Origin: Candidatus Obscuribacterales bacterium
GTDB lineage: Bacteria; Cyanobacteriota; Vampirovibrionia; Obscuribacterales; Obscuribacteraceae
Reading direction: 5' to 3'
Length of the DNA stretch: 64,000 bases
Assembly (NCBI GenBank): GCA_041675385.1
Contig: JBAYTY010000009.1
Span: 14,237-78,236 of the forward strand
Position 1 is the stretch's first letter; every line of letters begins with the position of its first letter. Position numbers and translations under genes: made by a program. Below the pieces are notes generated by a model, which was not told the origin of the DNA, made no database searches, and saw only the letters and a program-made list of their open reading frames with translations. Positions 4,371 through 20,054 of the stretch are shown here, piece by piece.

Positions 4371-4408
4371 ACTGCCCTAATAATCAATGAAGTAGAAAGG
4401 AGAACTAT

Positions 4409-4804
4409 ATGTTCAACCTTTTTAAGTTTGCTGCTCAGGAGCCGCCTCCTGACAGTAAGACCACCGACTCGTATTTCGAGAAGCTGGTCAAATACATCCC
4501 AGCGGACATCCTGGCTGCGTATGTGGCGATTACTGGCATCACTGCGAGTAATGACCCGCCGCTGTGGTTGACCTGGGGCGTCTTCGGAGTGCTTCTGGCG
4601 CTGACTCCTTTGTATGTCTGCTACGTCAAAACGGTCCCCAAGGGATTTCTAACCTCAAAGACCTTCCACTGGGTCACTGCTTGCCTGGCATTCGCTGCGT
4701 GGGTATTCGCTCTGGGTGGGCCTTTTGCCACGTTTGTTTGGTACAAACCATATCTTGGATCGGTGGTATTGATTCTGACAACGCTGATCATTCCAGTGTG
4801 CCGA
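4409..4804 (+). CDS. Small multi-pass membrane protein, 3' end displaced by an antisense group II intron
   Basis: An AAGGAG SD precedes the ATG at 4409, and 132 native codons carry several hydrophobic helices. From 4805 the reading frame runs into intron sequence (the tail of track ORF 4409..4897 is intron-derived). Confidence 0.6.
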
Positions 4805-4841
4805 GTAGACGGGGCGTGTCACCACGCCCGCGCCCCTCTAA

Positions 4842-4875
4842 GAACTGTGCGTGATAGTTTCCCATCACACAGCTC
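4842..4875 (-). ncRNA. Group II intron domain V
   Basis: The minus strand reads GAGCTGTGTGATGGGAAACTATCACGCACAGTTC. This is a 34-nt hairpin with the AGC-type catalytic triad position, a 2-nt bulge context and a GAAA tetraloop, as in the domain V consensus. Confidence 0.8.
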
Positions 4876-6355
4876 GCGCATCCAACCCAGTCAGTGACCG
4901 GGCTTTTGTTACTTTACGTTGTCGTATGCGGGCTTTGCGTCTTTCTTCTCGTGTCTGCCAGTATTCTCGGAGAGTGGGGTCATCTGGGCTGGCGGTGCCT
5001 TTTACCTTAATGTGTCGTTCGATTGGAACCGAGCTAACATCAAATAGGTAAATGGTTTTCTTGCCATCATAGGCTTGAAACACCCAATGAGCGTTTCCAC
5101 GCTGTCCGAAGTATTTCTTTGCTACCCAGCGTTTCCCTTTGTTTTGATGGCGCCGTAGGCACCATTTCCAAAGCATCTTCCAGATTTGTGACGATACGTA
5201 AGAGAGCACTTGCTTGCTAACGACATGTGAGTAGTGGTTCGACCATCCAGGTAGGATTTTATTGAAGTGTCTTATGACATTTTCGGTTGCAGTCTGTTTG
5301 TGGTTGTTCAGCCACAAACGTAGTTTTGCGAGGAAAGCCAACACCTTTTCTTTCTGTGGTTTGATAAGGCATTTGCCTTTGTATTTCCTAACATTGAAAC
5401 TCAAGAAATTGAACCCATCATTGATGTGCACAATTCTTGTTTTCTCCGGGTGCAGAGTCAAACCTCGCGGCTGTAGCCATTCTTCAATGGTCGATTGTGC
5501 GGCTTCAATCTTTTCACGAGTGCTTGCACATACTATTAGGTCGTCTGCATAGACTACGCAGCCATACGCTGGACCTAGTTTCTGTTGCAAACCGTACAGG
5601 GCTACGTTCAACAATAAGGGAGAGATTGTTCCCCCTTGTGGAACGCCGCTTTCTGTTTCGTGGAAGAAATCAGCCTCTACATAACCGGCTTTGAGCCACT
5701 CCTCAATAAGTTTTCGACCGGGCACTTGGCCGAGCATAGTGAGTATATGGGTATGTGAAATTTTATCAAATGCGCTTTTTAAGTCAGTGTCTAATATCCA
5801 TGGACGCCGACTCTTGCCCTTTAAGTAATGCCAGCATTGCACTATTGCATCGTGTATACTTCTTCCGGGTCGGAAGCCGTAGCTGTGTTGCTCGAATTGA
5901 GCTTCCCAACATGGTTCTATTGCATTTTTCACAATTGTCTGGGCGATTCTATTTCGAGTGGTTGGTATGCCCAACGGGCGCTCTTGGCCTGGTTTGCCAG
6001 GCTTTGGAATGTATACTCGTCTGGTTGGTTTGGCCTTCCAGATTGTATACTGCCCCATGCTCTGAACTAGAGCCATTCTCGCTTTAGGAGTTAAAGCCAC
6101 TTCTCCATCAACTCCGGCAGTGTTTTTGCCTTTGTTCTTTTGAGTGACTTGTCGCACAGACACAAGCAGATTAAAGTAACTACGGAGCATTAGCTTCATG
6201 AGGCTTCTAACCACATTCCACTTTTGCTCACGTGTTGCACGAAATATACGCTGTCTCAGTTTCCTGATAGACTTCTCAATCAGTTGCCACGGTAGTAGCC
6301 CCCAATCGAGGGTCTGTCCTTCTGTTCCGATACTATTGCTAGTTCTATCTTTCAC
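4865..6355 (-). CDS. Group II intron-encoded reverse transcriptase/maturase
   Basis: 496-aa ORF with RT blocks (..RPLGIPT.., ..DLKSAFD.., VVYADDLIV) and a C-terminal maturase/thumb-like region (..GWSNHYSHV..). No HNH/CxxC endonuclease motifs are visible in the tail. Confidence 0.95.
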   Translation of the reverse strand: MKDRTSNSIGTEGQTLDWGLLPWQLIEKSIRKLRQRIFRATREQKWNVVRSLMKLMLRSYFNLLVSVRQVTQKNKGKNTAGVDGEVALTPKARMALVQSMGQYTIWKAKPTRRVYIPKPGKPGQERPLGIPTTRNRIAQTIVKNAIEPCWEAQFEQHSYGFRPGRSIHDAIVQCWHYLKGKSRRPWILDTDLKSAFDKISHTHILTMLGQVPGRKLIEEWLKAGYVEADFFHETESGVPQGGTISPLLLNVALYGLQQKLGPAYGCVVYADDLIVCASTREKIEAAQSTIEEWLQPRGLTLHPEKTRIVHINDGFNFLSFNVRKYKGKCLIKPQKEKVLAFLAKLRLWLNNHKQTATENVIRHFNKILPGWSNHYSHVVSKQVLSYVSSQIWKMLWKWCLRRHQNKGKRWVAKKYFGQRGNAHWVFQAYDGKKTIYLFDVSSVPIERHIKVKGTASPDDPTLREYWQTREERRKARIRQRKVTKARSLTGLDARAV

Positions 6356-7093
6356 AGTCGTTAGAATCCTTTACTTTGTTATCTCGCGGGACACTCTCTG
6401 GAAGTCAGCCGCCTTTCAGCGTGGGCATGGTCCCTATCTTCGCCATTACAGCGAGGCATTTGCTTTCTCCAGAATCCGTTACCTCCTGAGCTGTTAGCCT
6501 TTGCTTACGCTCTGATTACTCGCTGGACAAGCGAGAGCCCATGAGGCTTACCACGTTCCGATTGAACGACTAGCGACCAGTTTAGGTCTCATCAATATTC
6601 CGGCAGAATTGAGCCTCCTCACTGCCTGTCTTCCAATCAGACAGCCATTCTGCTTCCCTTTTGGGCATGGTGTATCAGCCACTTTCACCATTCAACTGAT
6701 AACGGAACTTGAAATGATTTGCTTTCGCTGACCTTGCTGGTCCCCCTTTGACCCTTGACCTCGTTTGTGGCTTGAAGTTTTGAGTCTTTCGTGCCCTTCT
6801 ATTAACTGCGGTCATTGCTTACTAGCAGCGTGGGCGGAGTCCGTGAGGACTCTTTTACGTAGGGGCAGAGCGGGGAGGGGCTCTGAGATTAAATCCGATC
6901 ATTCAGTCGGCCTCGTGTCGATGATGGAAGGTCAGTTCTATCCCTGTGGCACTCCGTCGGAGCCTCCAGCTCCACCTGCTGTGCCCCCGGATGCGCCTAG
7001 TCCTGCCCCGCAGCCGATTCCGCCGGCAGCAGATCCTGCGACTCCCTCTGAACCTCCGAGCTCGTAACTCTTATTGAAGAAAGAGACCTGAAA

Positions 7094-7381: not shown

Positions 7382-7957
7382 ATGAGAGTATCCTCTCTAA
7401 TTCTCGCGGCAGTTGTCGCGCTCTCGCTTGCTGGGTGTGCTGTGGCACCGTCAGTGCGAGTACATCCACTCACGGCCGCTCAGCCGACTGTCGTTGACCT
7501 GGACGCCTCGGCGAGGGCCATTATCATGGTTCCAAAGCCTGATGGCAAAGGAATGGCTGTGTGCTCCGAGCCGTCGCCTGATGTGGCGATGTCGGCTGTG
7601 GCGAGTATGCTGGCTCAGGTCAAACTCGACAATCCGAATGTCGACGTTCAGACCAAGCTGGATTTCCAGACAGCGGTTATTGACTTGGCTCGTCGCAGTC
7701 AGTTCGTGAACTTTCAAAGGGAGAGTCTGTTTCGCCTTTGCGAACAGGGCATGAATCAGAATTTGAGTTCTGAACAGATCTTCGTGTTGTATCAGCAGGT
7801 GCTGCAGACTTCGCTCAAATTGGCGGAAGCTGAGTTGGCGAAGAACAAGGCAGATTTGGCCAAGGCCCTGAAGGACCCGGCTGTTCGGCAGTTGTTGAAT
7901 CAGCTGGTGGACAAGCCGATTGAGCCCATGCCGCTGGTTGGGCCGAAGAAGAAGTGA
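7382..7957 (+). CDS. Lipoprotein of unknown function
   Basis: The signal peptide has a lipobox: MRVSSLILAAVVALSLAG-C. A purine-rich SD region precedes the ATG. Confidence 0.8.
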   Translation: MRVSSLILAAVVALSLAGCAVAPSVRVHPLTAAQPTVVDLDASARAIIMVPKPDGKGMAVCSEPSPDVAMSAVASMLAQVKLDNPNVDVQTKLDFQTAVIDLARRSQFVNFQRESLFRLCEQGMNQNLSSEQIFVLYQQVLQTSLKLAEAELAKNKADLAKALKDPAVRQLLNQLVDKPIEPMPLVGPKKK

Positions 7958-8326
7958 GAAGCGTGGCGAGTGGCTGATAGGGCGCGGAAATCAAGTATGG
8001 AGATAACGACCGATTATGTTTCATCGATGTCTTATTGACTTCGCGGCTAAGGCTGAAAACTCAAACCAGCCCAGCATCCCTAATTTCTCCGCCCCCATTT
8101 TTCTAACTGTTGCATCTTCTTTTAAGTGCAGTCAGTTAGACCCGACCCCCAGTTAACAGATTCTGCGCTTCTCCTTCTCGTGGCAGGCGCCAGATTCTTG
8201 TTGCAAATAGAAACGTAATCATCTGCATTCGCAGATTCTCGCGACTTACAAGGATTGAACCCTTGTAAGCGCTCAAAGCGGAAAAATCATTTCGATTTCT
8301 CCGAACCAATTTAAAAGGAAAAACAA

Positions 8327-10483
8327 ATGTCTAACAAATTCGTAGACCTCGTAGGCGGCTCAGACGCCAACAACGGCAGTACTTTCGCGCTGCGTAAGAA
8401 GACCCTATCATCGGCTGCAGCAGTTGCAGTAGCAGGTGACGTCATTCGCGTCATGGGCAAACCAAGCACCAGTAGCGGTACCGCGACGTGGACCAAAGGT
8501 TCTCCTCTGGTCACGCTCGCAGCAGCAATGAACCAGCTTGTCTATGGCGACGGCGCCTGGACTCCGTCTGGCGCAACCGTCACGGCTACCGCCAACACCA
8601 CGGCCCCGACTCCCAAGCAGGGCGCCAACAGCTCCAAGCTGGTTTGCGCCGCTGGCTTTACCACCGGCCTGGTTGCCTATTGGCCCACCGGTGCCCTCAA
8701 CTTGAGCGCCTACCAGCAGCTCACCTTCTGGGTGCAGTCGAGCGTTGCTCTGGCCTCTGGTGCACTCAGTCTCAACCTGTGCAGCGACGCGGCTGGCGCA
8801 GTTGTAGTCAACACGCTGACTCTGAACAAGGCCCTGAACGCCGGTCAGTGGACGGCAGTAACCATCGACAATGGTGCGGCACTCGGCGCCTCCATCAATA
8901 GCGTGAGCCTGACGGCCAACTCCACGCTGGCCTCCAAGACCATTTCGCTGGACAACATTTCGGCAGCCAAAGCTCCGTCGGCTGCCGATTGCCTGGCGCT
9001 GAACACGTTGATTTCGCCAGACAACGCAGTTTTCTATTCAGTGCAAAGTATCAATGGCACGACAGTGTATGTCGATGCTCAGGCAACGACTGCTGCCACT
9101 CTGGCCAAGGGCTATCGCGGTGCCACTGGTTCCACTACCTTCTACATGTTGCAGCCGACGGTTGTTTCAATCGGCACCGGCAACACCGTCTACGACCAGG
9201 TCTTCTCTGGCAACGGCTCGGCTGGCAACCCGATCACCATTTCTGGTGGCTGGAACACCACTGACATGTCCACCCAGGACGGTCTGACTCTGATCGACCG
9301 CAGTGACTGGGCCGCTTCTGGTGTCAATCTTTCGGGCACCACCGGCTACATCACTGTCGACAAGATGATGTTCGGCCATGCGGCATTCCCTCTTGGTCTG
9401 GTGTCTACGGCGCGTGGCTACAACGTCAACAACAGTGGCTTTGCTGGCACTGGCTCGTTCTCGACCATGCCGACGCGAGCGGTAAATGTGGCGGGCTCGA
9501 ACTTCATCAACTGCACTGGCACGACGGCTATTCTGAACATCCCGGCCACAGGCAACTACAAGACGGATAACCTGAACTGGAGCATCACCAATACCAAGGT
9601 GTGGGGTGCTGCTGTTGCCGGTGTCAAGGTGCCGCTGTTCGTGGCTGCCGCTCCTGCAACTGTCACTGGCTGCAATTGCTCTGGCAACACCGGTCTGGGC
9701 TTCGACATTCAGTCAATTTGCAACTTCCGCTCCAACACGGCAGAAGGCAACACACTGGGCGGCATCAACTTCCAGGCCATCCAAGGCCAGGTTTCCTACG
9801 GCCTCACGTCGCGCGGCAACACTGTCGGTGAGGTTCTGCTGAACAACGCCGATGTTGAAATCTACGGCCTCGACACGAACACTGTGGGCGGCTCTGCTGT
9901 GCCACAGATCATGATTCCGAACAATGTCAGCGGTCGCGCTGTTGTCTATGACTGGACCCAATACACTGGTGGTGCCCCTGCTGCAGTTTTGACCAAGCTC
10001 GGTAGCCCCGGTACTGGTCGCACGGCAGGCAACTCGGTCAGCTCTCAGAAAGAGGGCGGGAATGCTGCTAACAACACCACCTACACCGACTACGGCACGA
10101 TTACGACGACCGGTGTTGTGGGTCAGCCTGGCTCTGGCATTGCCTGGAAGCTCACTCCTGATACTGACGCCCTGTCTGGTAGCCCGCTCAGCATCAATGT
10201 CGGCAGAGTGGCCTGTCCCGCTAATGTGACAACCACCATCACCTATTACGCCAAATTGAGTGCGGCTGGTCCGACTGCTCGGCTGAAGGTATTTGGCGGT
10301 CGCCATGCCGGTGTCGGCTCTGCCGGGACTGACATCACCGTCTCTATCGCCGGTACCACTTACGCACAGTACGCCATCTCGGTGACCCCGACAGAGGCCT
10401 GTGTAGTCGACATTTGGGCGGAGGTTTTCGGAAGCACAACCCAATCTTTGACTGTCAGCGGTCCCATCGTCGTCAGCCAGTAA
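8327..10483 (+). CDS. Large Thr/Ala/Gly/Asn-rich protein, probable right-handed beta-helix (pectate-lyase/tailspike-like) fold
   Basis: 718-aa ORF. The N-terminus (FVDLVGGSDANNGSTFALRKKTLSSAAAVAVAGDVIRV) matches the GSDxNxG...GDxIxV opening typical of parallel beta-helix proteins. No signal peptide is present. The fold call is an inference. Confidence 0.7.
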   Translation: MSNKFVDLVGGSDANNGSTFALRKKTLSSAAAVAVAGDVIRVMGKPSTSSGTATWTKGSPLVTLAAAMNQLVYGDGAWTPSGATVTATANTTAPTPKQGANSSKLVCAAGFTTGLVAYWPTGALNLSAYQQLTFWVQSSVALASGALSLNLCSDAAGAVVVNTLTLNKALNAGQWTAVTIDNGAALGASINSVSLTANSTLASKTISLDNISAAKAPSAADCLALNTLISPDNAVFYSVQSINGTTVYVDAQATTAATLAKGYRGATGSTTFYMLQPTVVSIGTGNTVYDQVFSGNGSAGNPITISGGWNTTDMSTQDGLTLIDRSDWAASGVNLSGTTGYITVDKMMFGHAAFPLGLVSTARGYNVNNSGFAGTGSFSTMPTRAVNVAGSNFINCTGTTAILNIPATGNYKTDNLNWSITNTKVWGAAVAGVKVPLFVAAAPATVTGCNCSGNTGLGFDIQSICNFRSNTAEGNTLGGINFQAIQGQVSYGLTSRGNTVGEVLLNNADVEIYGLDTNTVGGSAVPQIMIPNNVSGRAVVYDWTQYTGGAPAAVLTKLGSPGTGRTAGNSVSSQKEGGNAANNTTYTDYGTITTTGVVGQPGSGIAWKLTPDTDALSGSPLSINVGRVACPANVTTTITYYAKLSAAGPTARLKVFGGRHAGVGSAGTDITVSIAGTTYAQYAISVTPTEACVVDIWAEVFGSTTQSLTVSGPIVVSQ

Positions 10484-10510
10484 ACCAATCAATCTAAAAG
10501 GAGAAAAGAC

Positions 10511-10780
10511 ATGATCGACGTCGGTCTCAACCTAAATGTCGCCTACAAGGCGGCACCCTTTGTCCTTGGCTCTGGTCAGGACACCACCCCAATGCAGCTC
10601 GTGTATCAGGGGGCGCCTTTTCTGATTGCCAATCAGGAGCGCGGCTTTAGCTATCAGATGGATGTCCTTGGTCGCCTGACCAAGACCACCATCACGCAGG
10701 GTACCAACCAGCAGATAGCCTATGACGCCTCTGGCAATCGGACTTCGGTGGTCACGACTTGCGGCCCGAGCGGCTGTTAA
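10511..10780 (+). CDS. 89-aa protein carrying a single RHS/YD repeat
   Basis: A strong SD (AAAGGAGAAAAGAC) precedes the ATG. The C-terminal LGRLTKTTITQGTNQQIAYDASGNRTSVV is one YD repeat. The N-terminus has a duplicated YKAAPFV / YQGAPFL motif. Confidence 0.7.
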   Translation: MIDVGLNLNVAYKAAPFVLGSGQDTTPMQLVYQGAPFLIANQERGFSYQMDVLGRLTKTTITQGTNQQIAYDASGNRTSVVTTCGPSGC

Positions 10781-10807
10781 GTCACCCAGAAACCCGTCAT
10801 CCGATTG

Positions 10808-10841
10808 GCAACCGCCTATCAGCTTTGCCTCAGGCGGTTGC
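10808..10841 (+). other. Perfect 10-bp stem hairpin between the small YD gene and the RHS gene
   Basis: GCAACCGCCT, a 14-nt loop, then AGGCGGTTGC. No T-run follows, so it may be an RNA processing or attenuation structure rather than a terminator. Confidence 0.5.
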
Positions 10842-10890
10842 TAGTCTCAATTTCGAACCACACAAACCAAAACCAAAGAACGGAAAAATC

Positions 10891-13800
10891 ATGGAAACTC
10901 AAAACAACGTAGGCGTAGTCCCAGAAGACGCGCCAATGCTCTCGTTTGCCAATAGTCCTCAGCCCAAAACCAATCTGCCTATCTCTGTGGCGGAGCTGAA
11001 GAAGCAAGTGGAAAGTCAAGTAATCGATATGTCGACAATCGTCGACGTCAATGCCTTGAACGCGCAGCCATCATTTGCCGCAGCTACTGTCCAGGGCGCG
11101 CCATCAATTACAGAAATGGCACGTGCACTGGCAGGTTCAGCCACCGGTTCCACAGCAGTCGGTCAGATATTCGAGTTTGTCTACAACAACATCGAATGGG
11201 AACCCGGTTGGGGCGTCTACCGTGGCGCTCTTGGCTGCCTAATGGACGGCATGGGTAATGCATTCGACCAAAGCCTGCTCCTGGCCAACCTTTTGAGGTC
11301 AGCGGGCTTCACTGCCAATATTGTCATGGGGGAAATAACCCTATCGACTGCCCAAGTGACAAACTGGTTTGGTACCAACGACATCTTTAGCTCTGCTAAC
11401 TACTGCGGCAACCAAAACATCCCTTTCACTAATCTCGCCGTACCGTTTACGAGCCTGACCTTGGGACACGTATGGTGTCAAGTGGTCATATCTGGCACGA
11501 CTTATGTGTTGGACCCCGCTTTCAAGCAGTACACCCGTACTGCCGGTCTTGGCAGCGCTACGCTGGCAACAGCGCTTGGCTACAATGCCACGACTTTCTT
11601 GACCAACGCACAGTCCGGCGCGACTATCGATGCTGGCGGCGACTTCGTCCAGAACATGAACCGCACGAACGTGCGTAACGACCTCAAGACCATGACGGCA
11701 AATCTGGTCAGCTACATCAACGCAAACACCATCGGTAGCGCCGCTCCTGGCACCGCTACAGTCGAAGATGTGATTGGTGGTCAAACGATCATTCCGGTGA
11801 CCCTGCCGCTCACTCTCGTGACTGTCCTTCCTTACGAAAAAGTAGGCGATGTGCCGACTATTTGGACTGGCGACGTCGACAACGCTTTCAAGACGACTCT
11901 ACAGGTTGAGTACTTTGATCCGGCTGCTGGCAATGCGGTCACCATTAACCAGACCTTCTTTACTGATGCTTTGGCAGCGACTCGCTTGACGCTGTTTTTC
12001 AACGGATCTCTGGTGCCGACCCTGTACCTAAATGGCACGGCGCTGCAATCTGGTAATGCACAGACTGCGGGCACATTTACTTCACTGCGGCTGACAGTCA
12101 ATCACGGCGCTTACCAGGCATTTTGGGGCGGCAAGACTCAGCAGTCTTTCGCATCCGGCATCTATGCCGGTGGCTCTTATCTGATTGCTAATGCTTGGGG
12201 GAACCTTGGCACCGGGCAGCTTGAGTACCACCAGAACCAAGCTGCGGCAAACATTGCGGCAGGCGGCTCTCTTACTTCAGAAGCAGTGCTTGGTGAAAAG
12301 CTTGCCATCGTTTGGTACAGCTGGGCAGCCCAAAATAGCAGAGCTACCGACCTGCTTGGCCGTATCACTGCCTGCCACTTCATGTACAACCACCAGGTGG
12401 GCGTCATTCACTTCAATGATGCCGGAAGCAACGCTGTTGCAACTGACCTGGGTCTTATCTCTGGTGCACCACACAACCTAAACAATGACACCACGCAGAC
12501 TCCCAAGTTCCAGACTATCGTCGCTATGCACGGCGTTGCGCTGGAAGCTATTGTCTGTGCTCAGTCAAACGGCACCCCTCCTGGTGTTTCGGCTACCTCG
12601 ATGCTGGACCTGGCAAACCGGACTGCTGTGGTCACCGTAGGCGGTACCATTACCGCAGGCAATGTGGCAACCATTACAGTCAATGATGCAGCACTTCCTG
12701 GAGGTACGCAGGCTGTTAGCTACACGGTGCTTGTTGGAGATACATTGACGACAATCGCTACTGGACTAGCAGCGGCAGTCAACGGCAACACTAACCTCGC
12801 GGCAATCGGCGTGAAAGGGCTTGGAGTAGGGGCGACAGTTCTTGTTTCCTCGACTTCCGTAAACCAGACCACCTACACTGTTTCGGCAACTGGAACGCTC
12901 ACTTTGTCGGTGGCTTTTGAAAAGCTCTACAAAGGGAGCAGCGCAAACTGGACGGCTGGCACGGCCATCCGAAACAACCTCATAGCAAACGGCTACACAG
13001 CTGGTGACCTCGGTAGGTTGGATACGGACATCCCAAATGGTTATACCTGCGTGCTTGCTGAGCGTAAGAACCAGAAGCTTGGGTCATTCACCGGTTGGGC
13101 ATTCTGGGAGTTCTTCCCCAACGGTTTCAATCCAGCACCCGCTGGTGCATTTGGTATTGTCAACGGTGTCTACAGCTTCGGTGGTGGACAACCTGGCACT
13201 GCAGGCAACGGAACTCAAGGGAGTAACAATAATGGTGAGACCGGTGAAGAACCGATCAGCTATTCCACCGGCGCGTACATTTTGCAGACCAAAGATTTGG
13301 AAATTGGAAGTCAGGAATACCCTTACAAGTTGAGTTTTGGAAGAAACTACGATTCTAAGTCTCAGTATGCTAATGGACCGTTGGGCCGCGGATGGAACCA
13401 CAGCCACAATGTCAACGCCACAGTGGCAAGTAATGGCAGCTTTGCCATGGGGCAGCAGTACGCGGTCCCAGCTTGTGCGACCATTGCCAACATGTTTGTT
13501 AGCGTGGATTTGGCTGCTGATAATGCTCGTCCTGTATCCAAGCTGATGACCATTACCATTGGCGACAACTGGTGGGTGGACCAAATGGTGAATAACGCCG
13601 TGGTGATTTCATACCCGGACGCGACCAATCAAATCTACATCAAGCAGCCAGACGGCTCCTACACTAGGTCAGCCAACAACCTTCCCAGTAAGCTAACCGT
13701 GGTCAGTGGTCTATTTGTTCTGACTACTCCCCAAGGAGTAAAGACAAATTTCAACTCTGCCGGTCAGATTTCTTCGGTTGTATTTCCTACTGGAGTTACT

Positions 13801-16800
13801 GTCTCTTACACTTATACAAGTGGCAAGCTGACCAGCATTTCCAACGGTCTGGGGCGCACACTCACTCTCAACTACACCGGAAATCTGCTCACGAGCGTAA
13901 CCGATGGCACGGGACGCTCAGTTTCCTACACGGTGGATGCAAGTTCAAACTTGACCACATTCCAGGACGCAAACGGGCAAAACACCACTTATGCCTATGG
14001 AACGCCGGGACTGTTAACCCAGTACTTCATGCCAGCCTTTCCAGCCACAGCGATTATCACTAACGTTTACGATTCTCTTAGCCGTGTCAAAACACAGGCG
14101 AACACAAGGAATCAGGTGACTACGCTCTACCTGGCTGGTAGTCGCGCTGAGGTGGTTGATCCTGTTGGAAACAAGACTGTTCGGTACTTTAGTCCGATTG
14201 GTTCGACAGCTCGCCTCATTGATGCTCTTGGCTTCGAAACCAAGACAGTCTATGACGGCTTGAATCGAGTCGTCAAGTTGAATCAGCCTGAGGGAAACTA
14301 CAAGCAAATGACTTTTGATGCCAATGACAATGTCTTGAGCATCACCTCTGTAGCTAAGTCTGGGTCAGGGCTAGCCAATATTGTCGAGAACATGACCTAC
14401 GATACAACTTGGGCGAAACTCAAGACCTATCAGGATGGAAGAGGTAATACCACAACCAATTCTTATGATGCGGCGACTGGAAACCTGCTAACCATCCAAC
14501 GTCCAATGGTTGGAGGGCAAACCCCAACTGTCACAATGACTTATAACGGGCGAGGACAGATGCTGACTCGCACCGATGAGACATCGATTGTGACTCAATT
14601 TAACTACGATGCCACTACCGAAAAGTTGACTTCCATGGTGATAGACTTCGGTGTTTCTCCACATCTCAATTTATCAACTTCCTTCGGCTATGATGCGGTT
14701 GGCAATGTCACCAGCTTGACGGATGCACGCTCAAATCAGACGACCTTTGTATTCAATGGTCTCAGGAAGATGACACAAAAAACTGATCCTGGGCCGTTCA
14801 GTTATGTCACTAACTATGGCTATAACGCCAGCGCTTTCCTTACAAGCACTCAGAGACAAATAGCTGGCTCTCCTGCTTGGCAGTCCGTAAATTGGACTTA
14901 TTCTGCGTCAAATAAGGTTCTTACTGAGACAGATTCATTTGGTCGACAAAAATCTCGTACATATGATGGAAAAGATCGGCTTCAGACCTTAACCGACGGC
15001 CAAAGCCGTGTCTGGCAGCTAGCCTATGATGCAGTCGATCGCTTGAATCAAATCACCGACCCCAATTCGGTTGTGACCGATTTCCGCACCTTTACTGCAA
15101 ACGGAAAATTGGCGTCAATAAAGGATGCACGGAATAATACCACTCAATACTCTTGGGACGGTTTTGACCGCGCGAACAAGACAATCTATGCCGATGCAAC
15201 GTTCGAGCAGAATAGCTCCTACGATGCCAATGGCAACGTGCTTACGTTCTTGACTCGGTCTGGGAATAGCATCGTCAAAACTTTCGACGCCTTGAACCGA
15301 GAGGCAACCAGAGCACCGCAAGGTCAGCCCACGGTAACCTTGACTTATGATTTAGCCAACCGGCTGACTCAAGTCAGCAAGCCAGTTGTTGCAGGAGACC
15401 CATCTTCTGGAGCAACACAATTCTTCTTCGATACCGCTGGTCGTTTCTTCAAGGAGCAATACCCAGATGCAAAAACAGTCACGCATGTGCTTGATGGAAA
15501 TGGCAATTTCACCAAGACGACTTGGCCAGATGCCTATTTTATTGACCGAGTCTTCGATCAGATGAACCGCCTGACAGACATCAAGTTGAATGGCTCTGCA
15601 ATTGTGGCTGCCCATTTTGACTACAATGAGCTGTCCCAGCGTACGCAGTTGACCTATAGCAACGGGGCTACAGTGGTTTACAACCCTCGCCTCAATGGAG
15701 ACCTGACAGGTATCACTCATAATTTTGTTGGAAGCACTATGAGTCTCGCATATGGCTTTAACAATGTACAGGAGCCAATTGTGGCATCTGCAACAGACTC
15801 AAGCTATATCTGGCGCCCTAGCGGAGCAAGCAGCGTCCCGTACGGTGCGACAGACAACGTCAACAAGTATCCTACTGTTGGCGGAGTTGCCCAAACCTAT
15901 GACGGCAACAAGAACCTGATTGGCGATGGCACATGGACCTATACTTTTGATACCGAAAATCATTTGCTAACTGCAAATGCCACCGGTGTCAGTGCAAGCA
16001 TGGTCTACGATCCAATGCACCGACAATCTCAAAAGACTGTTGGTGCCGGAAAAACCCGCTACATCTATTCACGTTGGCAGCGCATAGCTGACTATGATGG
16101 TGTGGCAGGGACCCTGCAAAATCGTTATGTCTACGGCACTGGAATTGATGAGCCACTTATCCAGGTATCTAACGGAGGAGTTTTAAGTTTCCTTCATGCC
16201 GATAAGATGGGATCAATCGTTGGTGTAAGCAACGCCTCTGGTGCTAGTGCAAGCAAAAACTTGTATAGTCCGTTCGGTGAGACGAGCACTCTCTCTGGAA
16301 CGAACTTTGGCTTTACTGGTCAACGGTACGATTTTGAGCTTGGTCTGTACTACTTCAAGATGCGCTATTTCGCTCCCAAGATTGGGCGATTTTTGCAGCC
16401 AGATCCCGCGGGATTCACCACTGAGGACTTCAATCTTTATTCGTACGGGAACAACAGTCCTCACAAGTATTCTGACCCATCAGGTACTTTTGCTGTAGTC
16501 GTAGGAATAGCTCTGGCAGTAGCTGCTGCTTTGGCGTTGAGTGGATGTTCCGACAACGGTAACAATGCTGGTGATAGCAATCAAGGCACCGGTGACAGTA
16601 ACCAAGGCACAGGAGACCAGAATCAAGGTCAGAGTGGAGGTGATCAGAATCAAGGTACCGGAGACCAAACTGGTGGACCGCACTATGGTCACAATGAGAC
16701 TAATCCAATGGATTCGAGTGACCCTGCCTTGCAGGGTACGATTAACGGGATAAATCAGACCCAAAATGGTCCTGTTGGACAAGAGCAGCACACTCCAACA

Positions 16801-16869
16801 CCAGTCATTCCAAACCATGGGCAGCCGCGAGTGCAATTTGATGATCACGGCAACCAAGTGTATAAGTAG
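10891..16869 (+). CDS. RHS/YD-repeat protein with N-terminal transglutaminase-like domain and atypical C-terminal payload
   Basis: The track ORF starts at TTG 10759; the ATG at 10891 (METQNNVG) is more plausible. A transglutaminase-like Cys/His/Asp pattern is present (ALGCLMDGMGNAFDQ.., GHVWCQV, VLDP). A DUF6531-like opening follows (EEPISYSTGAYILQTKDLEIG..GRGWNHSH), then dozens of YD repeats. The RHS core end reads RYFAPKIGRFLQPDPAGF..NLYSYGNNSPHKYSDPSGT. Confidence 0.95.
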   Translation: METQNNVGVVPEDAPMLSFANSPQPKTNLPISVAELKKQVESQVIDMSTIVDVNALNAQPSFAAATVQGAPSITEMARALAGSATGSTAVGQIFEFVYNNIEWEPGWGVYRGALGCLMDGMGNAFDQSLLLANLLRSAGFTANIVMGEITLSTAQVTNWFGTNDIFSSANYCGNQNIPFTNLAVPFTSLTLGHVWCQVVISGTTYVLDPAFKQYTRTAGLGSATLATALGYNATTFLTNAQSGATIDAGGDFVQNMNRTNVRNDLKTMTANLVSYINANTIGSAAPGTATVEDVIGGQTIIPVTLPLTLVTVLPYEKVGDVPTIWTGDVDNAFKTTLQVEYFDPAAGNAVTINQTFFTDALAATRLTLFFNGSLVPTLYLNGTALQSGNAQTAGTFTSLRLTVNHGAYQAFWGGKTQQSFASGIYAGGSYLIANAWGNLGTGQLEYHQNQAAANIAAGGSLTSEAVLGEKLAIVWYSWAAQNSRATDLLGRITACHFMYNHQVGVIHFNDAGSNAVATDLGLISGAPHNLNNDTTQTPKFQTIVAMHGVALEAIVCAQSNGTPPGVSATSMLDLANRTAVVTVGGTITAGNVATITVNDAALPGGTQAVSYTVLVGDTLTTIATGLAAAVNGNTNLAAIGVKGLGVGATVLVSSTSVNQTTYTVSATGTLTLSVAFEKLYKGSSANWTAGTAIRNNLIANGYTAGDLGRLDTDIPNGYTCVLAERKNQKLGSFTGWAFWEFFPNGFNPAPAGAFGIVNGVYSFGGGQPGTAGNGTQGSNNNGETGEEPISYSTGAYILQTKDLEIGSQEYPYKLSFGRNYDSKSQYANGPLGRGWNHSHNVNATVASNGSFAMGQQYAVPACATIANMFVSVDLAADNARPVSKLMTITIGDNWWVDQMVNNAVVISYPDATNQIYIKQPDGSYTRSANNLPSKLTVVSGLFVLTTPQGVKTNFNSAGQISSVVFPTGVTVSYTYTSGKLTSISNGLGRTLTLNYTGNLLTSVTDGTGRSVSYTVDASSNLTTFQDANGQNTTYAYGTPGLLTQYFMPAFPATAIITNVYDSLSRVKTQANTRNQVTTLYLAGSRAEVVDPVGNKTVRYFSPIGSTARLIDALGFETKTVYDGLNRVVKLNQPEGNYKQMTFDANDNVLSITSVAKSGSGLANIVENMTYDTTWAKLKTYQDGRGNTTTNSYDAATGNLLTIQRPMVGGQTPTVTMTYNGRGQMLTRTDETSIVTQFNYDATTEKLTSMVIDFGVSPHLNLSTSFGYDAVGNVTSLTDARSNQTTFVFNGLRKMTQKTDPGPFSYVTNYGYNASAFLTSTQRQIAGSPAWQSVNWTYSASNKVLTETDSFGRQKSRTYDGKDRLQTLTDGQSRVWQLAYDAVDRLNQITDPNSVVTDFRTFTANGKLASIKDARNNTTQYSWDGFDRANKTIYADATFEQNSSYDANGNVLTFLTRSGNSIVKTFDALNREATRAPQGQPTVTLTYDLANRLTQVSKPVVAGDPSSGATQFFFDTAGRFFKEQYPDAKTVTHVLDGNGNFTKTTWPDAYFIDRVFDQMNRLTDIKLNGSAIVAAHFDYNELSQRTQLTYSNGATVVYNPRLNGDLTGITHNFVGSTMSLAYGFNNVQEPIVASATDSSYIWRPSGASSVPYGATDNVNKYPTVGGVAQTYDGNKNLIGDGTWTYTFDTENHLLTANATGVSASMVYDPMHRQSQKTVGAGKTRYIYSRWQRIADYDGVAGTLQNRYVYGTGIDEPLIQVSNGGVLSFLHADKMGSIVGVSNASGASASKNLYSPFGETSTLSGTNFGFTGQRYDFELGLYYFKMRYFAPKIGRFLQPDPAGFTTEDFNLYSYGNNSPHKYSDPSGTFAVVVGIALAVAAALALSGCSDNGNNAGDSNQGTGDSNQGTGDQNQGQSGGDQNQGTGDQTGGPHYGHNETNPMDSSDPALQGTINGINQTQNGPVGQEQHTPTPVIPNHGQPRVQFDDHGNQVYK
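16489..16866 (+). other. RHS C-terminal payload region (126 aa after the DPSGT core end)
   Basis: The region reads FAVVVGIALAVAAALALSGC, a hydrophobic helix ending in a lipobox-like LSGC. It continues with GDSNQGT/GDQNQGT repeats and a Gln/Asn/Pro/His-rich tail. Confidence 0.7.
16570..16677 (+). repeat. Imperfect 21-bp tandem repeats encoding GD(S/Q)NQGT units
   Basis: ggtgatagcaatcaaggcacc / ggtgacagtaaccaaggcaca / ggagaccagaatcaaggt.. / ggtgatcagaatcaaggtacc / ggagaccaaactggtgga. Confidence 0.75.
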
Positions 16870-16909
16870 TGATAGGATCTAGCTTGTCAGCTTAGAGTTC
16901 TAGAGAATT

Positions 16910-16942
16910 GAGAAGGGGAAGAATTCAATTCTTCTCCTTCTC
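16910..16942. terminator. Bidirectional hairpin terminator between the convergent RHS and CPBP genes
   Basis: GAGAAGGGGAAGAATT, C, AATTCTTCTCCTTCTC: 16-nt arms with one G-T wobble. Confidence 0.7.
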
Positions 16943-17007
16943 TACCTATTCTCATTCTCAGCTCTTAGCGCTGGAACCATATTAAGCAATAACCCTCGTA
17001 CTTCATA

Positions 17008-17574
17008 TCAGACGAACCTGCAAAAATTCCACAAGAAGTGAAGAAGGATGCAGATATTTACACTTGAGAACCTGCGATAAGAAATGGCTAGCAAAATACC
17101 CAGCAGCAATACAGCATAGTAATTTGTGAATCGAAGATTATGAAAACTGACAAAGATAGCAACATTCAAGAGGAACGGCTTGAATGAATTTTCTCCGTAC
17201 GTGTTCTTGAGTGCTCGCATGAGAACTCCACGAAATAGCAATTCTTCACTAAAGGAAGCCATAAGAACATCCCTGAAAAATTCGTACGAAAATAGCTCTG
17301 GTGCTCTTATTGCTGGACTTGACAGTTTGAGGGTCATGCGGATCACTAAAGTCGCAACAACTAAAAAAGAAAGATCTTTGACGCATTCCCATTTACCAAT
17401 TTGGAATTGTGATTTCCCTAACAGCTCGTCTAAAGTTGTTTTCAAATCTCTTCTGCGATAGATCAAAAAGCATGAAAGAAGGAATGGAAGTATGTATAAG
17501 TAGACGGACATGAACGTTTGACGCCAAAGACTCAAGCCAATCAAATAACAAATTACTGTAGAACTAGAAGGCAC
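17008..17574 (-). CDS. CPBP (CAAX/Abi) family intramembrane metalloprotease-like protein
   Basis: The three family motifs are present in order, SEELLFRG (EExxxR), VSFHNL (FxxxH) and HFLWN (HxxxN), within a multi-TM protein. The start is uncertain (17574 or ATG 17511). Confidence 0.85.
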   Translation of the reverse strand: MPSSSTVICYLIGLSLWRQTFMSVYLYILPFLLSCFLIYRRRDLKTTLDELLGKSQFQIGKWECVKDLSFLVVATLVIRMTLKLSSPAIRAPELFSYEFFRDVLMASFSEELLFRGVLMRALKNTYGENSFKPFLLNVAIFVSFHNLRFTNYYAVLLLGILLAISYRRFSSVNICILLHFLWNFCRFV

Positions 17575-17735
17575 TCTTTGAAACCAATTTGGGGGTGACT
17601 TGGGAACACTATTTGTAGCTGTCTGGCTTTGCTAGGCGTTAGCTATGTCTATTGTTCCACTTTGAAGAGCAAAACAAATAGTTTTGATTGATGTTATGTA
17701 TTATCAGCGCTTGCTAATGCTGTAAAAGCTTACTT

Positions 17736-17783
17736 GGAGAGGGTTTTCGGGATTGAATTAATCCGCCCTCTCCTCTTTTTTTT
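17736..17783 (+). terminator. Orphan intrinsic terminator on the plus strand
   Basis: GGAGAGGG..CGGGATTGAATTAATCCG..CCCTCTCC followed by TCTTTTTTTTT. No plus-strand gene lies upstream. Confidence 0.55.
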
Positions 17784-17925
17784 ATCTCGAAAATGCTCTA
17801 CTATAGAATGTTTTAGGGTGTGGCCAAGGCTAGCCGAAAATCGACGCAACCATGCGGGTTCCACTGGTCTAGACTCCGGGGGGCCGATAAAAAATTTCGG
17901 CTATCTTGCAAAGGGGCTCTGCTGC

Positions 17926-18570
17926 TTAGCGCTTCTTGAGAAGTTTCTTCCCGTCAGGCCTTAGCGCCCCAGCCGGACTGACATAGCGGTAAAGAGTCTG
18001 GCGGCTTATGCCCAGTTCCTCGCACAGATCATTGACTACTGTACCGGGTCTGCCCATTGCCGCCTTGGCCATGTGCACTTTCGCTGGCGTCATAGTGTGG
18101 CGACGACCACCGACCCGTCCACGGGCTCTAGCGGCTGCTAGCCCGGCCCGTGTTCGCTCAGAGATAAGAGAGTGTTCATAGTCAGCTAGCGCCGCGAAGA
18201 TCCCGAAAATCAGTTTGCCAGAAGACGTGGTGGTATCAATACTGCCACCCTGGCCTGTTAGCACCTTTAGCTTGACTCTGCGTTTTGAGAGGTCTTGAAT
18301 GAGATTGACTAAGTGAGTTAGGTCACGGCCAAGGCGATCGAGCTTCCAAACAATTAGGGTGTCGCCTTCACGCAGCGCTTTTAGGCAGGCGTCTAGACCA
18401 GGGCGGTCATCTTTCTTGCCTGAGGCGTGGTCCTCATACATTCGCTTCTTCGTGACGCCAGCGGCCACGAGAGCGTCCTTTTGTAAATCGACAGTTTGGG
18501 AGCCGTCGGCTTTGGATACTCGCATATAGCCTATTAGCAATTTTTTTTGCCCCTCTGTTGGTGCAGTCAC
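17926..18570 (-). CDS. Serine recombinase (resolvase/invertase family, Tn3 TnpR-like)
   Basis: LLIGYMRVSKADGSQTVDLQ carries the catalytic Ser. Also present are ..GDTLIVWKLDRLGRD.., ..FAALADYEHSLISERT.. and a C-terminal HTH (ISRQTLYRYV). Confidence 0.95.
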   Translation of the reverse strand: MTAPTEGQKKLLIGYMRVSKADGSQTVDLQKDALVAAGVTKKRMYEDHASGKKDDRPGLDACLKALREGDTLIVWKLDRLGRDLTHLVNLIQDLSKRRVKLKVLTGQGGSIDTTTSSGKLIFGIFAALADYEHSLISERTRAGLAAARARGRVGGRRHTMTPAKVHMAKAAMGRPGTVVNDLCEELGISRQTLYRYVSPAGALRPDGKKLLKKR

Positions 18571-18619
18571 TTATACGGCCGTTTGCAGAACAAATTATTT
18601 TCAAGCAAAAACAGTCGAT

Positions 18620-18705
18620 TTTGTGTCACTTATCCAGTCACTTTATCAATGCTCTATAAACTTGGGAAATTTAGTTAAGTGACAAACTTAAACAGTCGTG
18701 ACTCT
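18620..18705. promoter_or_regulatory. Putative res / recombinase-binding repeats upstream of the resolvase gene
   Basis: TGTCACTTA (18624-18632) is inverted as TAAGTGACA (18676-18684). Additional AGTCACTT (18637) and AGTCGTGACT (18694) half-sites are present. Confidence 0.35.
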
Positions 18706-18784
18706 TGAGGTGGAACACTTTGCGGGAAGCCGGTCACAGGGCCAACCTTCTCATTAAGTCAAATGGCGGGTATAAGTTATTACG

Positions 18785-19906
18785 TCATTTTGCAACGCGG
18801 AAAGCCTTTCCATCGTCACCTCCAATAACTTGAGTTTCGACCACTTTGTCGTTTCGAAGAGTTACGTACAGGATTCGGCCGCTCAAATCGCCGAGCCCGG
18901 CTACATCCCAGCTCAATATTTTGTCTCCGTTTCCATTTACAACAGCGTCATCAAATCGATTACCCTTGGGCAATAGTTCTCTCACTTCTCTTTCATTTTT
19001 CGAATAGAGCCAGTGCGAGTCTTCAAGCGCATCGGCTACAAGTGAACGAACACCGATGGGAAAATCGTGATTCCAAAAGAAATAGTAAAAGGGGCGTGGA
19101 TACTCAAGCACCACAGTCATTAACGTAAATGCAAGGAATGAGCCTGAAAGCCATTTCAGTTGCTTGCTTAATCGGTTTCTTCTTCGTTCGGTAATCTCAT
19201 CAAATGAAAGCGGCTCTGCTGCTTGCGCCTCAAGCGCGGCAACACTGCTAGAAAGCCAGTGCATATACCATTTAGAAAAGGTAACAGTGTGACCATCATC
19301 ATCCAGTAGTGGAGCTAAGCCGTTTCTATCTGCCCTTCTATCAAACCAGAGCGACCCGGCTTGATCACCTTTAACTACCAGCCATATTCTCAAACCGCAA
19401 CCTTGATGGCAGATTGGAATAGCACCATTCAAGTTTTCAGCGGCAAAATAAACGCTTTCAAATTGGTCAAGCTCTGCTCCGTTTCCGCTGATTTTATCAG
19501 GATAAGAAATGTTCCAGGCCGTTCGATGTGGAAAGGGTTCGCTTATTGCACCAATCAATTTATCCCAGTTTTCCAATCCTGTTGGGCTTGAATCGCTCTT
19601 CCCTAGAGGAAATACACCATAGTATGGCCCGGCACCGCCATTGCCGACTTCAGTTAGAAAGTAGCGATAATCATCTGGAAGATACAGTTCGTGCTCAGCT
19701 TCGAATGCCGTTACCAGGCTCTCATCTAACGGTGCATTGAGAGAGTAGTGATGGTCTTTTGCACCAAATAATTGAGAGCCCCTGTCCAGGTCTATCAGAC
19801 GCGGCAGGAGTGATTTTATATTGGCAGCATTAAATTCAGAACTACTGGTCATCATCCTTTTTTTTTGTAACTGCCCAGGCCGCATTAAGCAATTTAGTCT
19901 ACCCAT
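18785..19906 (-). CDS. SMI1/KNR4 (SUKH-1) family protein with a central TM segment and extra C-terminal domain
   Basis: LPDDYRYFLTEVGNGGAGPYYGVFPL and ..IPICHQGCGLRIWLVVKGDQAGSLWFD are typical SMI1/KNR4 signatures. A hydrophobic segment, LSGSFLAFTLMTVVL, follows. The start is uncertain (19906, 19885 or 19855/19852). Confidence 0.8.
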   Translation of the reverse strand: MGRLNCLMRPGQLQKKRMMTSSSEFNAANIKSLLPRLIDLDRGSQLFGAKDHHYSLNAPLDESLVTAFEAEHELYLPDDYRYFLTEVGNGGAGPYYGVFPLGKSDSSPTGLENWDKLIGAISEPFPHRTAWNISYPDKISGNGAELDQFESVYFAAENLNGAIPICHQGCGLRIWLVVKGDQAGSLWFDRRADRNGLAPLLDDDGHTVTFSKWYMHWLSSSVAALEAQAAEPLSFDEITERRRNRLSKQLKWLSGSFLAFTLMTVVLEYPRPFYYFFWNHDFPIGVRSLVADALEDSHWLYSKNEREVRELLPKGNRFDDAVVNGNGDKILSWDVAGLGDLSGRILYVTLRNDKVVETQVIGGDDGKAFRVAK

Positions 19907-20054
19907 CGATTTTAATCAATTCATACGGCTCATATCTTGTCAAATCCACTATTTCATCAGCCAGTTGCTGCGAGTGGTTGGTTAACCACGCGTGAGTATC
20001 TCTTGATGCCCTTGCAATTGGCTTTGGAAGCAAGTCTTACAAACCTGATTGCAT

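Follow-up and report, generated by a model that had tools for sequence, protein, structure and literature searches.

How can a toxin enclosed in an RHS cocoon reach its target when no recognisable delivery machinery is encoded beside it? RHS cocoons are known to reach their targets via the spikes of type VI secretion systems (T6SS), via Tc translocators, or by Sec export combined with wall anchoring. The locus considered here is from Candidatus Obscuribacterales bacterium. The Obscuribacterales are a non-photosynthetic sister group of the cyanobacteria, and these uncultured diderms are not known to have a T6SS. The locus lies in a stretch of 64,000 nt (JBAYTY010000009.1, positions 14,237-78,236), hereafter called the window, and all coordinates below are those of the window unless another locus is named. 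Four genes, all confirmed as open reading frames (ORFs) on the + strand, encode a lipoprotein, a 718-aa protein, an 89-aa protein and an RHS protein. An earlier examination of the letters of this DNA (the sequence-only reading) had suggested that the gene set may represent an undescribed way to export or present an RHS cocoon. As far as presentation is concerned, this suggestion is supported as a hypothesis by conserved linkage, by a tailspike fold and by the lack of known secretion signals; an undescribed way of export would be a conjecture. The explanation that we favour, for which the chances of being right and wrong appear to us evenly balanced, is that the locus encodes a polymorphic RHS toxin and that a domesticated tailspike, attached through a YD adaptor, would provide it in trans with targeting or adhesion.

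Conserved linkage of the 718-aa, 89-aa and RHS genes

Related loci, designated by L-numbers, were collected by exact-protein look-ups, a one-genome-per-species scan and a metagenome scan; the look-ups and the species scan together gave 36 loci. Every Obscuribacterales locus with downstream DNA, about 28 in all (L001-L003, L005-L028 and L031), has the same order, namely the 718-aa gene, the gene of the 89-aa protein (hereafter the miniprotein) and an RHS gene with the same long N-terminal region (N-region). The 718-aa and 89-aa proteins thus have homologues that are tightly linked to RHS genes, and this part of the grouping made in the sequence-only reading holds outside the window. Across the linked loci, the 718-aa proteins are 45-97% identical to the window protein, and 12-59 nt separate the 718-aa gene from the miniprotein gene. 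Where homologues of the 718-aa protein are named, they belong to metagenome-assembled genomes (MAGs) of Candidatus Obscuribacter, Obscuribacterales and Melainabacteria.

The cassette is multi-copy, with 5-7 copies per genome that are mosaic through recombination and differ in their toxin tips. Five copies were found in one MAG (L005, L008, L010, L011 and L012) and at least seven in another (L006, L009, L013, L014, L022, L023 and L032).

A tailspike-like protein of phage ancestry

The 718-aa protein had been described from its sequence as a tailspike-like beta-helix protein without a signal peptide; structure prediction confirms this description, and no Sec signal was found. The AlphaFold2 model (monomer, 68-sequence alignment; pLDDT 94.2, pTM 0.90) shows an N-terminal cap with an inserted jelly roll resembling a carbohydrate-binding module (CBM; about aa 45-215), a right-handed beta-helix (about aa 230-560) and a C-terminal beta-sandwich (about aa 580-718). 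A Foldseek search of the PDB with this model matched Klebsiella phage capsule depolymerases, the tailspikes of P22 and CBA120, and GH87 beta-helices (9qrm, 6tku, 8iqe, 2xc1 and 5w6p; E 1e-7 to 1e-4), and the subdomains matched CBM4/CBM16 jelly rolls. At the sequence level, nothing was found in Pfam, NCBIfam or PHROGs, and the sequence profile weakly matches the AlgE4 and AlgG beta-helices.

Among viral predicted structures (BFVD), the top match is the full-length protein A0A5K7NMS3 (783 aa; TM-score 0.71, E 9e-49), which is of the same size as a protein of Methanosarcina virus MetMV matched by tblastn. Relatives at 33-45% identity occur in phage genomes (L039, L038, L040 and MetMV), and the relative in L039 directly follows tape-measure, DUF1833 and Gp80 tail genes. 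In other phage contigs, too, relatives stand behind genes for tape-measure and minor-tail proteins. The fold and the phage ancestry of the 718-aa protein are thus established, and the tailspike/depolymerase fold together with the distant relatives in phage tail modules points to a domesticated receptor-binding protein.

Phage and cellular versions have aa 1-400 and aa 567-716 in common, whereas the middle is divergent. A similar division is seen among the Obscuribacterales copies: the types of their helix body (aa 231-560) are either more than 76% or 35-39% identical to that of the window, and the N- and C-terminal domains stay 52-97% identical. A variable middle between conserved ends is what one would expect if a receptor-specificity module is exchanged by recombination.

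Given this origin, the 718-aa gene might be a prophage remnant that hitch-hikes on a mobile element next to an ordinary RHS gene, with no functional link between the two, and the multi-copy cassette with its flanking recombinases would fit such a history. However, no other phage structural gene is present at any cellular locus (none in the window or in L001-L031), and the 718-aa gene is intact and of full length wherever a contig covers the whole of it. Moreover, the gene order and the short spacing are kept where the identity of the 718-aa protein has dropped to 45-50%, despite recombination in and around the gene, and an extension of the miniprotein, described below, tracks the presence of the 718-aa gene. 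We therefore consider chance proximity extremely improbable.

The YD miniprotein and its wider module

That the 89-aa protein consists essentially of one YD repeat, as had been proposed, is borne out by profile searches (Pfam RHS_repeat, E 2.5e-4; TIGR01643, E 1e-4). Residues 1-45 form an extension with two Y-x-A-A-P-F motifs, the YD unit occupies aa 46-83, and the C-terminus reads CGPSGC. In a 30-sequence alignment this architecture is kept at 36-99% identity, with GPxGC or GPHGL at the C-terminus. Each miniprotein gene has its own ribosome-binding site (RBS), and all three stop codons are used among the loci, which together with the kept architecture indicates a real gene. Read-through or frameshifting from the miniprotein into RHS is excluded, because the frames vary, three stops are used, and every RHS gene starts from an RBS and an ATG of its own.

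A conserved Cys-x4-Cys pattern closes many miniproteins (CGPSGC or CPSGTC; 10774-10777 in the window), and other subtypes end in GPHGL. If the two Cys form a small disulfide loop, this would point to an oxidising, extracytoplasmic destination.

The N-region of the RHS protein includes a transglutaminase-like domain (see below), and a metagenome scan with this N-region added 80 loci. Of 110 loci with the transglutaminase-RHS type in all, 100 have a YD miniprotein gene about 0.1-1.8 kb upstream of the RHS gene. The single-YD miniprotein and the transglutaminase-RHS form a widespread two-gene module that is not peculiar to the window locus, and the pairing has apparently not been described before. 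A profile search with the miniprotein itself (1.84 billion representatives) was swamped by multi-repeat RHS proteins, whose numerous YD units sum to high scores; with one 88-aa match in the top 150, it gave no information on the distribution of the miniprotein.

In about half of the loci (the Sec class, with sister loci falling in L063-L118), the miniprotein (80-100 aa) and the RHS protein both start with classical signal peptides. In most other lineages the module is plainly Sec-dependent. In the signal-less class, to which the window belongs, neither protein has a signal peptide. The signal-less loci without a tailspike (L043-L058, L060, L064, L081 and L119) have a minimal miniprotein of 43-58 aa that is the YD unit alone, e.g. 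MAADTATYTYDNLGRL...CPSGTC.

Counted over loci whose upstream DNA is long enough, the extension (about 45 residues, with YxAAPF motifs) is present in all 31 tailspike loci and in none of the 40 tailspike-less loci; 23 of the 31 extensions have two strict motifs, and eight have one strict and one degenerate motif. Since the extension occurs only where the tailspike is present, we read it as part of an adaptor that would tether a glycan-recognising spike to the RHS cocoon. Beside the phage or non-melainabacterial tailspike relatives in L030 and L033-L040, no small protein of the YxAAPF type was found. Three further loci (L044, L045 and L047) carry the two genes found upstream of the cassette in the window, for a four-transmembrane-helix (4-TM) protein and for the lipoprotein, at 81-85% identity to the window type, and lack both tailspike and extension. 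This difference from their near kin indicates that tailspike and extension were gained or lost among close relatives, and the tailspike is an optional add-on confined to one subclade. It looks like a device for targeting or adhesion more than one for export.

The near-constant presence of the miniprotein, including the minimal YD-only forms of 43-55 aa, beside transglutaminase-RHS genes in nearly all lineages could also speak for a more basic role tied to RHS. The miniprotein might be a folding cap, a chaperone or a plug for the exposed edge of the RHS beta-spiral, with an extension unrelated to the tailspike. Such a role would leave unexplained why the extension is restricted to tailspike loci, and also why YD units are fused to Ig-like, FN3 and collagen parts elsewhere. 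These fusions, found at Sec-type loci, comprise a YD unit with collagen repeats and Hint (L075, 7456-8613), three N_BRCA1-type Ig-like domains with a YD unit (L108, 8239-9723), a YD unit with FN3 (L109, 670-1587), and three YD units with collagen-like linkers between them (L088, 406-1272). Fused to adhesin-like parts in this way, the YD unit behaves as a portable docking tag. We therefore regard a pure folding cap as unlikely, although capping and adaptor roles are not mutually exclusive.

The Sec-type pairs have neighbours of their own. Genes similar to those of the type II secretion system (T2SS) proteins GspF and GspG adjoin them about 2 kb upstream of the RHS gene (L074, L105, L108, L114, L117, L118 and L120), which hints at a dedicated T2SS for Sec-type RHS proteins. 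At 14 Sec-type loci (L075, L076, L085, L086, L088-L090, L093, L096, L103, L104 and L111-L113), at least one gene encodes a signal-peptide protein of about 280 aa with Peptidase_S74, the endosialidase/tail-fibre chaperone domain. These neighbours represent a second, independent pairing of phage fibre-like proteins with the transglutaminase-RHS class.

The RHS protein, its tip and candidate immunity genes

For the N-terminus of the RHS protein, the sequence-only reading had listed the absence of PAAR, VgrG-binding, LXG, TcB-like and signal-peptide features. Profile searches agree as far as secretion is concerned: no canonical secretion adaptor was detected in the N-terminus, and PAAR, VgrG, LXG, TcB and two-partner secretion (TPS) domains gave no match in Pfam, NCBIfam or PHROGs. 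Likewise, neither an LXG/WXG domain nor a TPS domain with a TpsB partner was matched in Pfam or NCBIfam. The region is nevertheless not without features, since it contains a transglutaminase-like core and is followed by DUF6531 (aa 787-848). The core (aa 77-203) matches Pfam Transglut_core PF01841 at 22.0 bits (cutoff 23), and PF01841 is also found in the RHS homologues P0129, P0131, P0132, P0134 and P0137. The position of the catalytic Cys is occupied by Ala or is variable, and His193 and Asp208 are invariant; the domain is accordingly predicted to be catalytically dead. Hydropathy profiles of the window protein and 27 paralogues show no hydrophobic segment in the first 160 aa, and hence neither a Sec signal nor a transmembrane (TM) helix; the sister loci L065-L118 do have such a segment. 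A word-indexed homologue search with the N-region gave nine hits. An AlphaFold2 model of the N-region, built on a 9-sequence alignment, had a pLDDT of 48.7 and was too poor for a fold search, and a sequence search of the N-region against the PDB gave no match. In a subtype of the RHS proteins, a Cys-rich motif (…EDCGCGCGGCADS…) is located near the N-terminus, within the first ~30 codons (L005, L006, L010, L012, L013 and L015), and the DNA that encodes it can fold into strong hairpins.

A single chain contains the complete cocoon (Pfam DUF6531, E 1.3e-9; RHS_repeat, E 3.6e-39; TIGR01643, E 1.1e-21). The Rhs-associated core TIGR03696 matches aa 1792-1865 (E 2.3e-21) and ends in the motif P-x4-DPAG...DPSG, located as ...FLQPDPAGF...YSDPSG with DPSG at aa 1865. 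The sequence past DPSG differs in all 28 paralogous loci, and nucleotide homology of the window to its paralogues ends at 16478.

The window tip starts, immediately past DPSG, with a hydrophobic helix that runs into a lipobox-like LALSG↓C, and N/Q/G-rich low-complexity repeats of the GDSNQGTGD type follow; it looks more like an internal lipoprotein signal than an enzyme. It gave no Pfam match in a scan of the whole RHS protein, and among ten paralogue tips scanned against Pfam one matched, namely to DUF6973. The tips of L007 and L022 also have long Ala/Gly-rich hydrophobic stretches.

A variable ORF on the same strand follows the RHS gene at a distance of 7-570 nt in about 22 of the 28 paralogous loci. 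The window RHS gene is followed by a gene for a protein of the CPBP family, of which a homologue is also found downstream of the RHS gene in L001. Members of the CPBP family are used for self-immunity to bacteriocins, and from this use the window protein may be considered a candidate immunity protein. In L003, genes for a LanC-like protein and a lanthipeptide dehydratase (16526-20399) stand directly after the RHS gene.

Secretion genes were sought among the 41 ORFs of the window scanned with Pfam, 23 of which were also scanned with at least one of NCBIfam, PHROGs and PADLOC. No T6SS, Tc, TPS or T2SS gene was found among them, in keeping with the earlier remark that no delivery machinery is recognisable. 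When the locus is compared with known types, it lacks the features tested for T6SS, Tc, TPS, LXG and Sec/T2SS toxins and belongs to the Rhs polymorphic toxins, with their YD-repeat shell, Rhs-associated core and variable tip.

Layout, upstream genes and surroundings of the locus

The features of the locus are collected in Table 1. The sequence-only reading had spoken of four same-strand genes with short gaps; the strand is right, but the gap between the lipoprotein and 718-aa genes is 369 nt and not short. The 27-nt gap reported before the 89-aa gene (10484-10510) was found as described and contains an AGGAG-type RBS. The 110-nt spacer between the miniprotein and RHS genes does hold a hairpin; its core, however, is not a perfect 10-bp stem, as had been stated, but comprises nine perfect Watson-Crick pairs within a longer stem of 15 bp (10803-10817 / 10832-10846) that also has G-U pairs. 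The minimum free energy is -28.6 kcal/mol (z = -4.5), and none of 200 shuffles was equally stable. Since it lacks a U tract, the hairpin is not a canonical terminator, and it was not picked up as one. Comparable stable hairpins of unrelated sequence follow the miniprotein stop codon in many loci. The hairpin is probably an intercistronic element that may set relative expression. The locus had also been judged more GC-rich than its surroundings, and GC is indeed 0.53-0.57 over 7-13 kb against about 0.48 elsewhere, but this rise stops midway through the RHS gene.

Table 1. Features of the RHS locus in window coordinates
Feature	Position	Strand	Remarks
TM4 gene, 5' part (about 130 codons)	4409-4799	+	Conserved 4-TM membrane protein
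Group II intron with reverse transcriptase/maturase	4800-6921	-	ORF 4865-6355; antisense in TM4 gene
TM4 gene, 3' remnant	6922-7067	+	Pro-rich tail, severed by the intron
Lipoprotein, 191 aa	7382-7957	+	Lipobox LSLAG↓C; C-terminal half coiled-coil-like
718-aa tailspike-like protein	8327-10483	+	Structure and phage relatives
89-aa YD miniprotein	10511-10780	+	Pfam and TIGRFAM YD repeat
Stem-loop	10803-10846	+	In spacer 10781-10890, between miniprotein and RHS genes
RHS gene	10891-16869	+	1992 aa, ATG start
RHS N-region (aa 1-786)	10891-13248	+	Disordered Pro-rich leader, transglutaminase-like domain at about 77-210, further beta-rich domains
RHS cocoon	13249-16485	+	DUF6531, YD repeats, Rhs-associated core
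Variable C-terminal tip, 127 aa	16486-16869	+	Presumed toxin
CPBP/Rce1-like intramembrane protease family protein	17008-17574	-	Pfam PF02517, E 2.1e-15; candidate immunity
Small serine recombinase (resolvase/invertase)	17926-18570	-	Pfam Resolvase, E 1.3e-43

Upstream of the lipoprotein gene, the gene of the 4-TM protein (TM4) is interrupted in its 3' part by a complete group II intron. The intron is recognised by its domain V/VI (Rfam RF00029 at 4800-4877, minus strand, 56.7 bits) and by Pfam RVT_1, RVT_N and GIIM. The translated 3' remnant, '...EGQFYPCGTPSEPPAPP...', matches the C-termini of the intact TM4 proteins in L010 and L012; intact products have about 165-180 aa (about 240 aa in longer ORF calls) and a Pro-rich C-terminal tail. 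In L010 (a JAGOSY01 MAG contig), which is 100% identical to window 3336-4799, the intron is missing, and window position 4799 is joined straight to 6922. Because the intron is antisense, it is unspliceable from the 4-TM mRNA, and the window copy therefore encodes a truncated 4-TM protein.

Homologues of TM4 lie upstream of the cassette in 15 of the 29 genome-scan loci (28 plus the window) and in several metagenome loci, and those of the lipoprotein in 10 of these 29 loci and also in L041, L044, L045, L047, L049 and L057. The two proteins are frequent, not universal, neighbours of the cassette. The lipoprotein and the 4-TM protein of the window had no match in Pfam, PHROGs, NCBIfam or PADLOC. 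Clustering of upstream ORFs revealed a further gene, for a 260-310-aa protein, in 10 loci but not in the window; this protein and the intact 4-TM version had no match in Pfam or PHROGs. As candidates for an export role we can name only the 4-TM protein and the lipoprotein.

These two neighbours bear on a different use of the tailspike. It might open the producer's own capsule, exopolysaccharide or wall so that the RHS protein is released, with the 4-TM protein acting in the manner of a holin and the lipoprotein in that of a spanin, by analogy with the lysis-type (type 10) release of Tc toxins. None of the three cassette proteins has a Sec signal, the 718-aa fold matches polysaccharide depolymerases, the two neighbours often lie upstream, and their topology alone is compatible with a type 10 release cassette. 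However, neither has a match to a holin, endolysin or spanin family in Pfam or PHROGs at E < 0.1, no muramidase was seen, and where the upstream DNA is long enough, about half of the loci lack them. L044, L045 and L047 keep both genes without the tailspike, which is thus dispensable alongside them, and swapping of the helix body better fits variable targets than the producer's own envelope. On balance, an action on the producer's envelope seems to us improbable.

The surroundings of the locus are rich in mobile and defence-type genes. After two tandem tyrosine recombinase genes (949-1932 and 1929-3326, both on the - strand) comes a fragment (3409-4038) that contains a Mu-transposase C-terminal domain. 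The start of the block identical to L010 (100%) lies at 3336, a position suggestive of a recombination junction or of the border of a mobile element. Resolvase homologues with 88-92% identity to that of the window stand downstream of the RHS gene in L005, L007, L008, L011 and L012; the resolvase gene travels with the cassette. Shufflon-like invertible switching by the adjacent resolvase was rejected, as no convincing flanking inverted repeats were found in 15.5-21 kb. The resolvase gene is flanked by the CPBP gene and a SUKH (SMI1/KNR4) gene (18785-19906, -), both on the strand opposite to RHS and downstream of it; to judge from their families, these may be orphan or cognate immunity genes.

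Just past the cassette, a 1165-aa SNF2 helicase (20708-24205, +) matches the PADLOC models DpdE (1e-214) and ZorD (1e-120), and no partner genes of DpdE or ZorD systems were seen. In a 716-aa protein (30450-32600, +), a caspase domain (Peptidase_C14) occurs together with TPR repeats and a TonB C-terminal domain, an unusual architecture. Over the 41 ORFs scanned, Pfam shows recombinases, the group II intron, the defence-type helicase and housekeeping genes. A megablast search of the locus against plasmids gave no match.

With integrases, an intron, a DpdE/ZorD-like helicase and a caspase-TPR protein nearby, and with three cassette proteins that lack export signals, the complex might stay inside the cell. 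It could then act, for example, in abortive infection, in which a copy of a tailspike senses or traps phage parts and triggers the RHS toxin. Such a function is very unlikely, since no cassette protein matches a PADLOC defence model, and the polymorphic tips, the variable downstream ORFs and the SUKH and CPBP genes are the signature of an interbacterial toxin. In addition, members of the same RHS family are Sec-secreted in other lineages, and the cassette has a lipoprotein gene and a membrane protein gene linked to it.

Proposed explanation and points against it

We propose that the core of the system is the two-gene module of a one-YD miniprotein and an RHS cocoon with a dead transglutaminase-like N-terminus. 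In the Obscuribacterales lineage, the Sec signal peptides of both partners have been lost. One subclade has, in addition, acquired a domesticated tailspike gene directly upstream, and the miniprotein simultaneously gained its 45-residue extension with two YxAAPF motifs. The miniprotein would thus be a bipartite adaptor, in which the YD unit docks to RHS and the extension holds the tailspike. The tailspike would recognise, and perhaps cut, a polysaccharide on the surface of the target cell, with its swappable beta-helix body setting the target range. The cocoon would carry the variable toxin tip, to be released by the usual Rhs autoproteolysis, and downstream genes (in the window that of the CPBP protein) would give self-protection.

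A bolder version goes two steps further, and we put it forward tentatively, as a possibility that we doubt more than we believe. The locus would encode a self-contained RHS delivery complex that works without a secretion system, and the YD miniprotein would be a universal docking tag. In such a complex a tailspike trimer would be the receptor-binding and glycan-cutting head, the YD adaptor would bolt this head to the cocoon, and the dead transglutaminase domain would aid attachment; the particle would be free or displayed on the surface. Its target range would be reprogrammed by a swap of the helix body, and its payload by a swap of the tip. As for the docking tag, tailspike, Ig, FN3 and collagen modules would be plugged onto transglutaminase-RHS toxins across bacteria.

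Several points weigh against the favoured explanation of a toxin with a tailspike supplied in trans. Its weakest link that matters is the presumed binding of the extension to the tailspike and of the YD unit to RHS, and the physical complex of the 718-aa protein, the miniprotein and RHS is likewise putative. Glycan targeting, immunity and export are also putative roles, and an extracellular role is an assumption, since every one of the proteins lacks an export signal. The counts of 31 and 40 loci are non-independent and may reflect one or few evolutionary events. In pairwise comparisons, the correlations of identity between modules decay with distance along the cassette, which is plain linkage and adds no support for co-evolution. 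In the 718-aa protein, the beta-helix showed no identifiable catalytic residues. As judged by Pfam, the tips match no known toxin family apart from the one DUF6973, and the candidate immunity gene that follows RHS in the window, the CPBP gene, is on the opposite strand. Finally, the window copy of the cassette may be impaired, its 4-TM gene being cut by the antisense intron.

If the favoured explanation is true, the combination of an RHS cocoon with a domesticated phage receptor-binding protein would be a new solution to the targeting problem, and another case in which bacteria re-use viral hardware for host recognition. Two exchangeable parts, the helix body and the toxin tip, would suit the engineering of narrow-spectrum antibacterial proteins. 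The single-YD miniprotein, a near-constant partner of transglutaminase-RHS in many lineages, may matter more broadly, as it offers a starting point for testing by what means RHS shells are joined to accessory modules. That in Obscuribacterales both partners have lost their signal peptides raises a clear question of export.

Comparison with known systems

RHS toxins that bear an inactive transglutaminase domain at the N-terminus are known (Zhang, de Souza, Anantharaman, Iyer & Aravind 2012, Biol Direct 7:18, PMC3482391). In the section of that paper on this class, the domain is proposed to hold the toxin to the surface of the cell as an anchor, and it is said always to follow a signal peptide or TM helix. 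The order of an inactive transglutaminase-like domain, RHS repeats and a variable toxin, with SUKH-type immunity nearby, is the same in the window. In contrast, the window and about 50 related loci have neither signal peptide nor TM helix, and the same section of PMC3482391 mentions neither a YD miniprotein nor a tailspike partner. The window locus is close to this subclass but lacks its signal-peptide feature. A description of a tailspike-RHS pairing or of a YD miniprotein partner was not found in the literature searched, with most subscription journals outside the search.

T6SS Rhs effectors resemble the window protein in their single-chain cocoon with DUF6531, YD repeats and Rhs core, in their polymorphic tips and in having a small accessory gene upstream. 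However, PAAR, prePAAR, VgrG, DUF1795 (Eag) and T6SS genes are absent from the scanned ORFs of the window, and the small upstream protein is a YD unit where the T6SS effectors have an Eag chaperone. RHS proteins that are Sec-dependent (WapA-type) or associated with T2SS are represented by the sister loci L063-L118, which have Sec signals and in some cases stand beside GspF/GspG; the window proteins differ from them in having no signal peptides.

The Tc (ABC) toxins also have an RHS cocoon with an autoproteolytically released toxin, a separate receptor-binding protein and no classical signal peptide. In Yersinia, Tc toxins are released by a lysis cassette. The window, on the other hand, has no TcA, no TcB (SpvB, TcdB-mid) and no split cocoon, and no translocation device is evident in it. 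The partner of the Tc cocoon is a pore-forming pentamer, whereas that of the window cocoon is a beta-helix tailspike.

The 718-aa protein, lastly, has in common with the phage tailspikes and depolymerases (P22 gp9, CBA120 TSP1-4 and those of Klebsiella phages) the right-handed parallel beta-helix, the carbohydrate-binding modules, and the conserved ends around an exchangeable central specificity region. In contrast to these, the window type is cellular and free of virion genes, occurs in 5-7 copies per genome, and always stands beside an RHS toxin.

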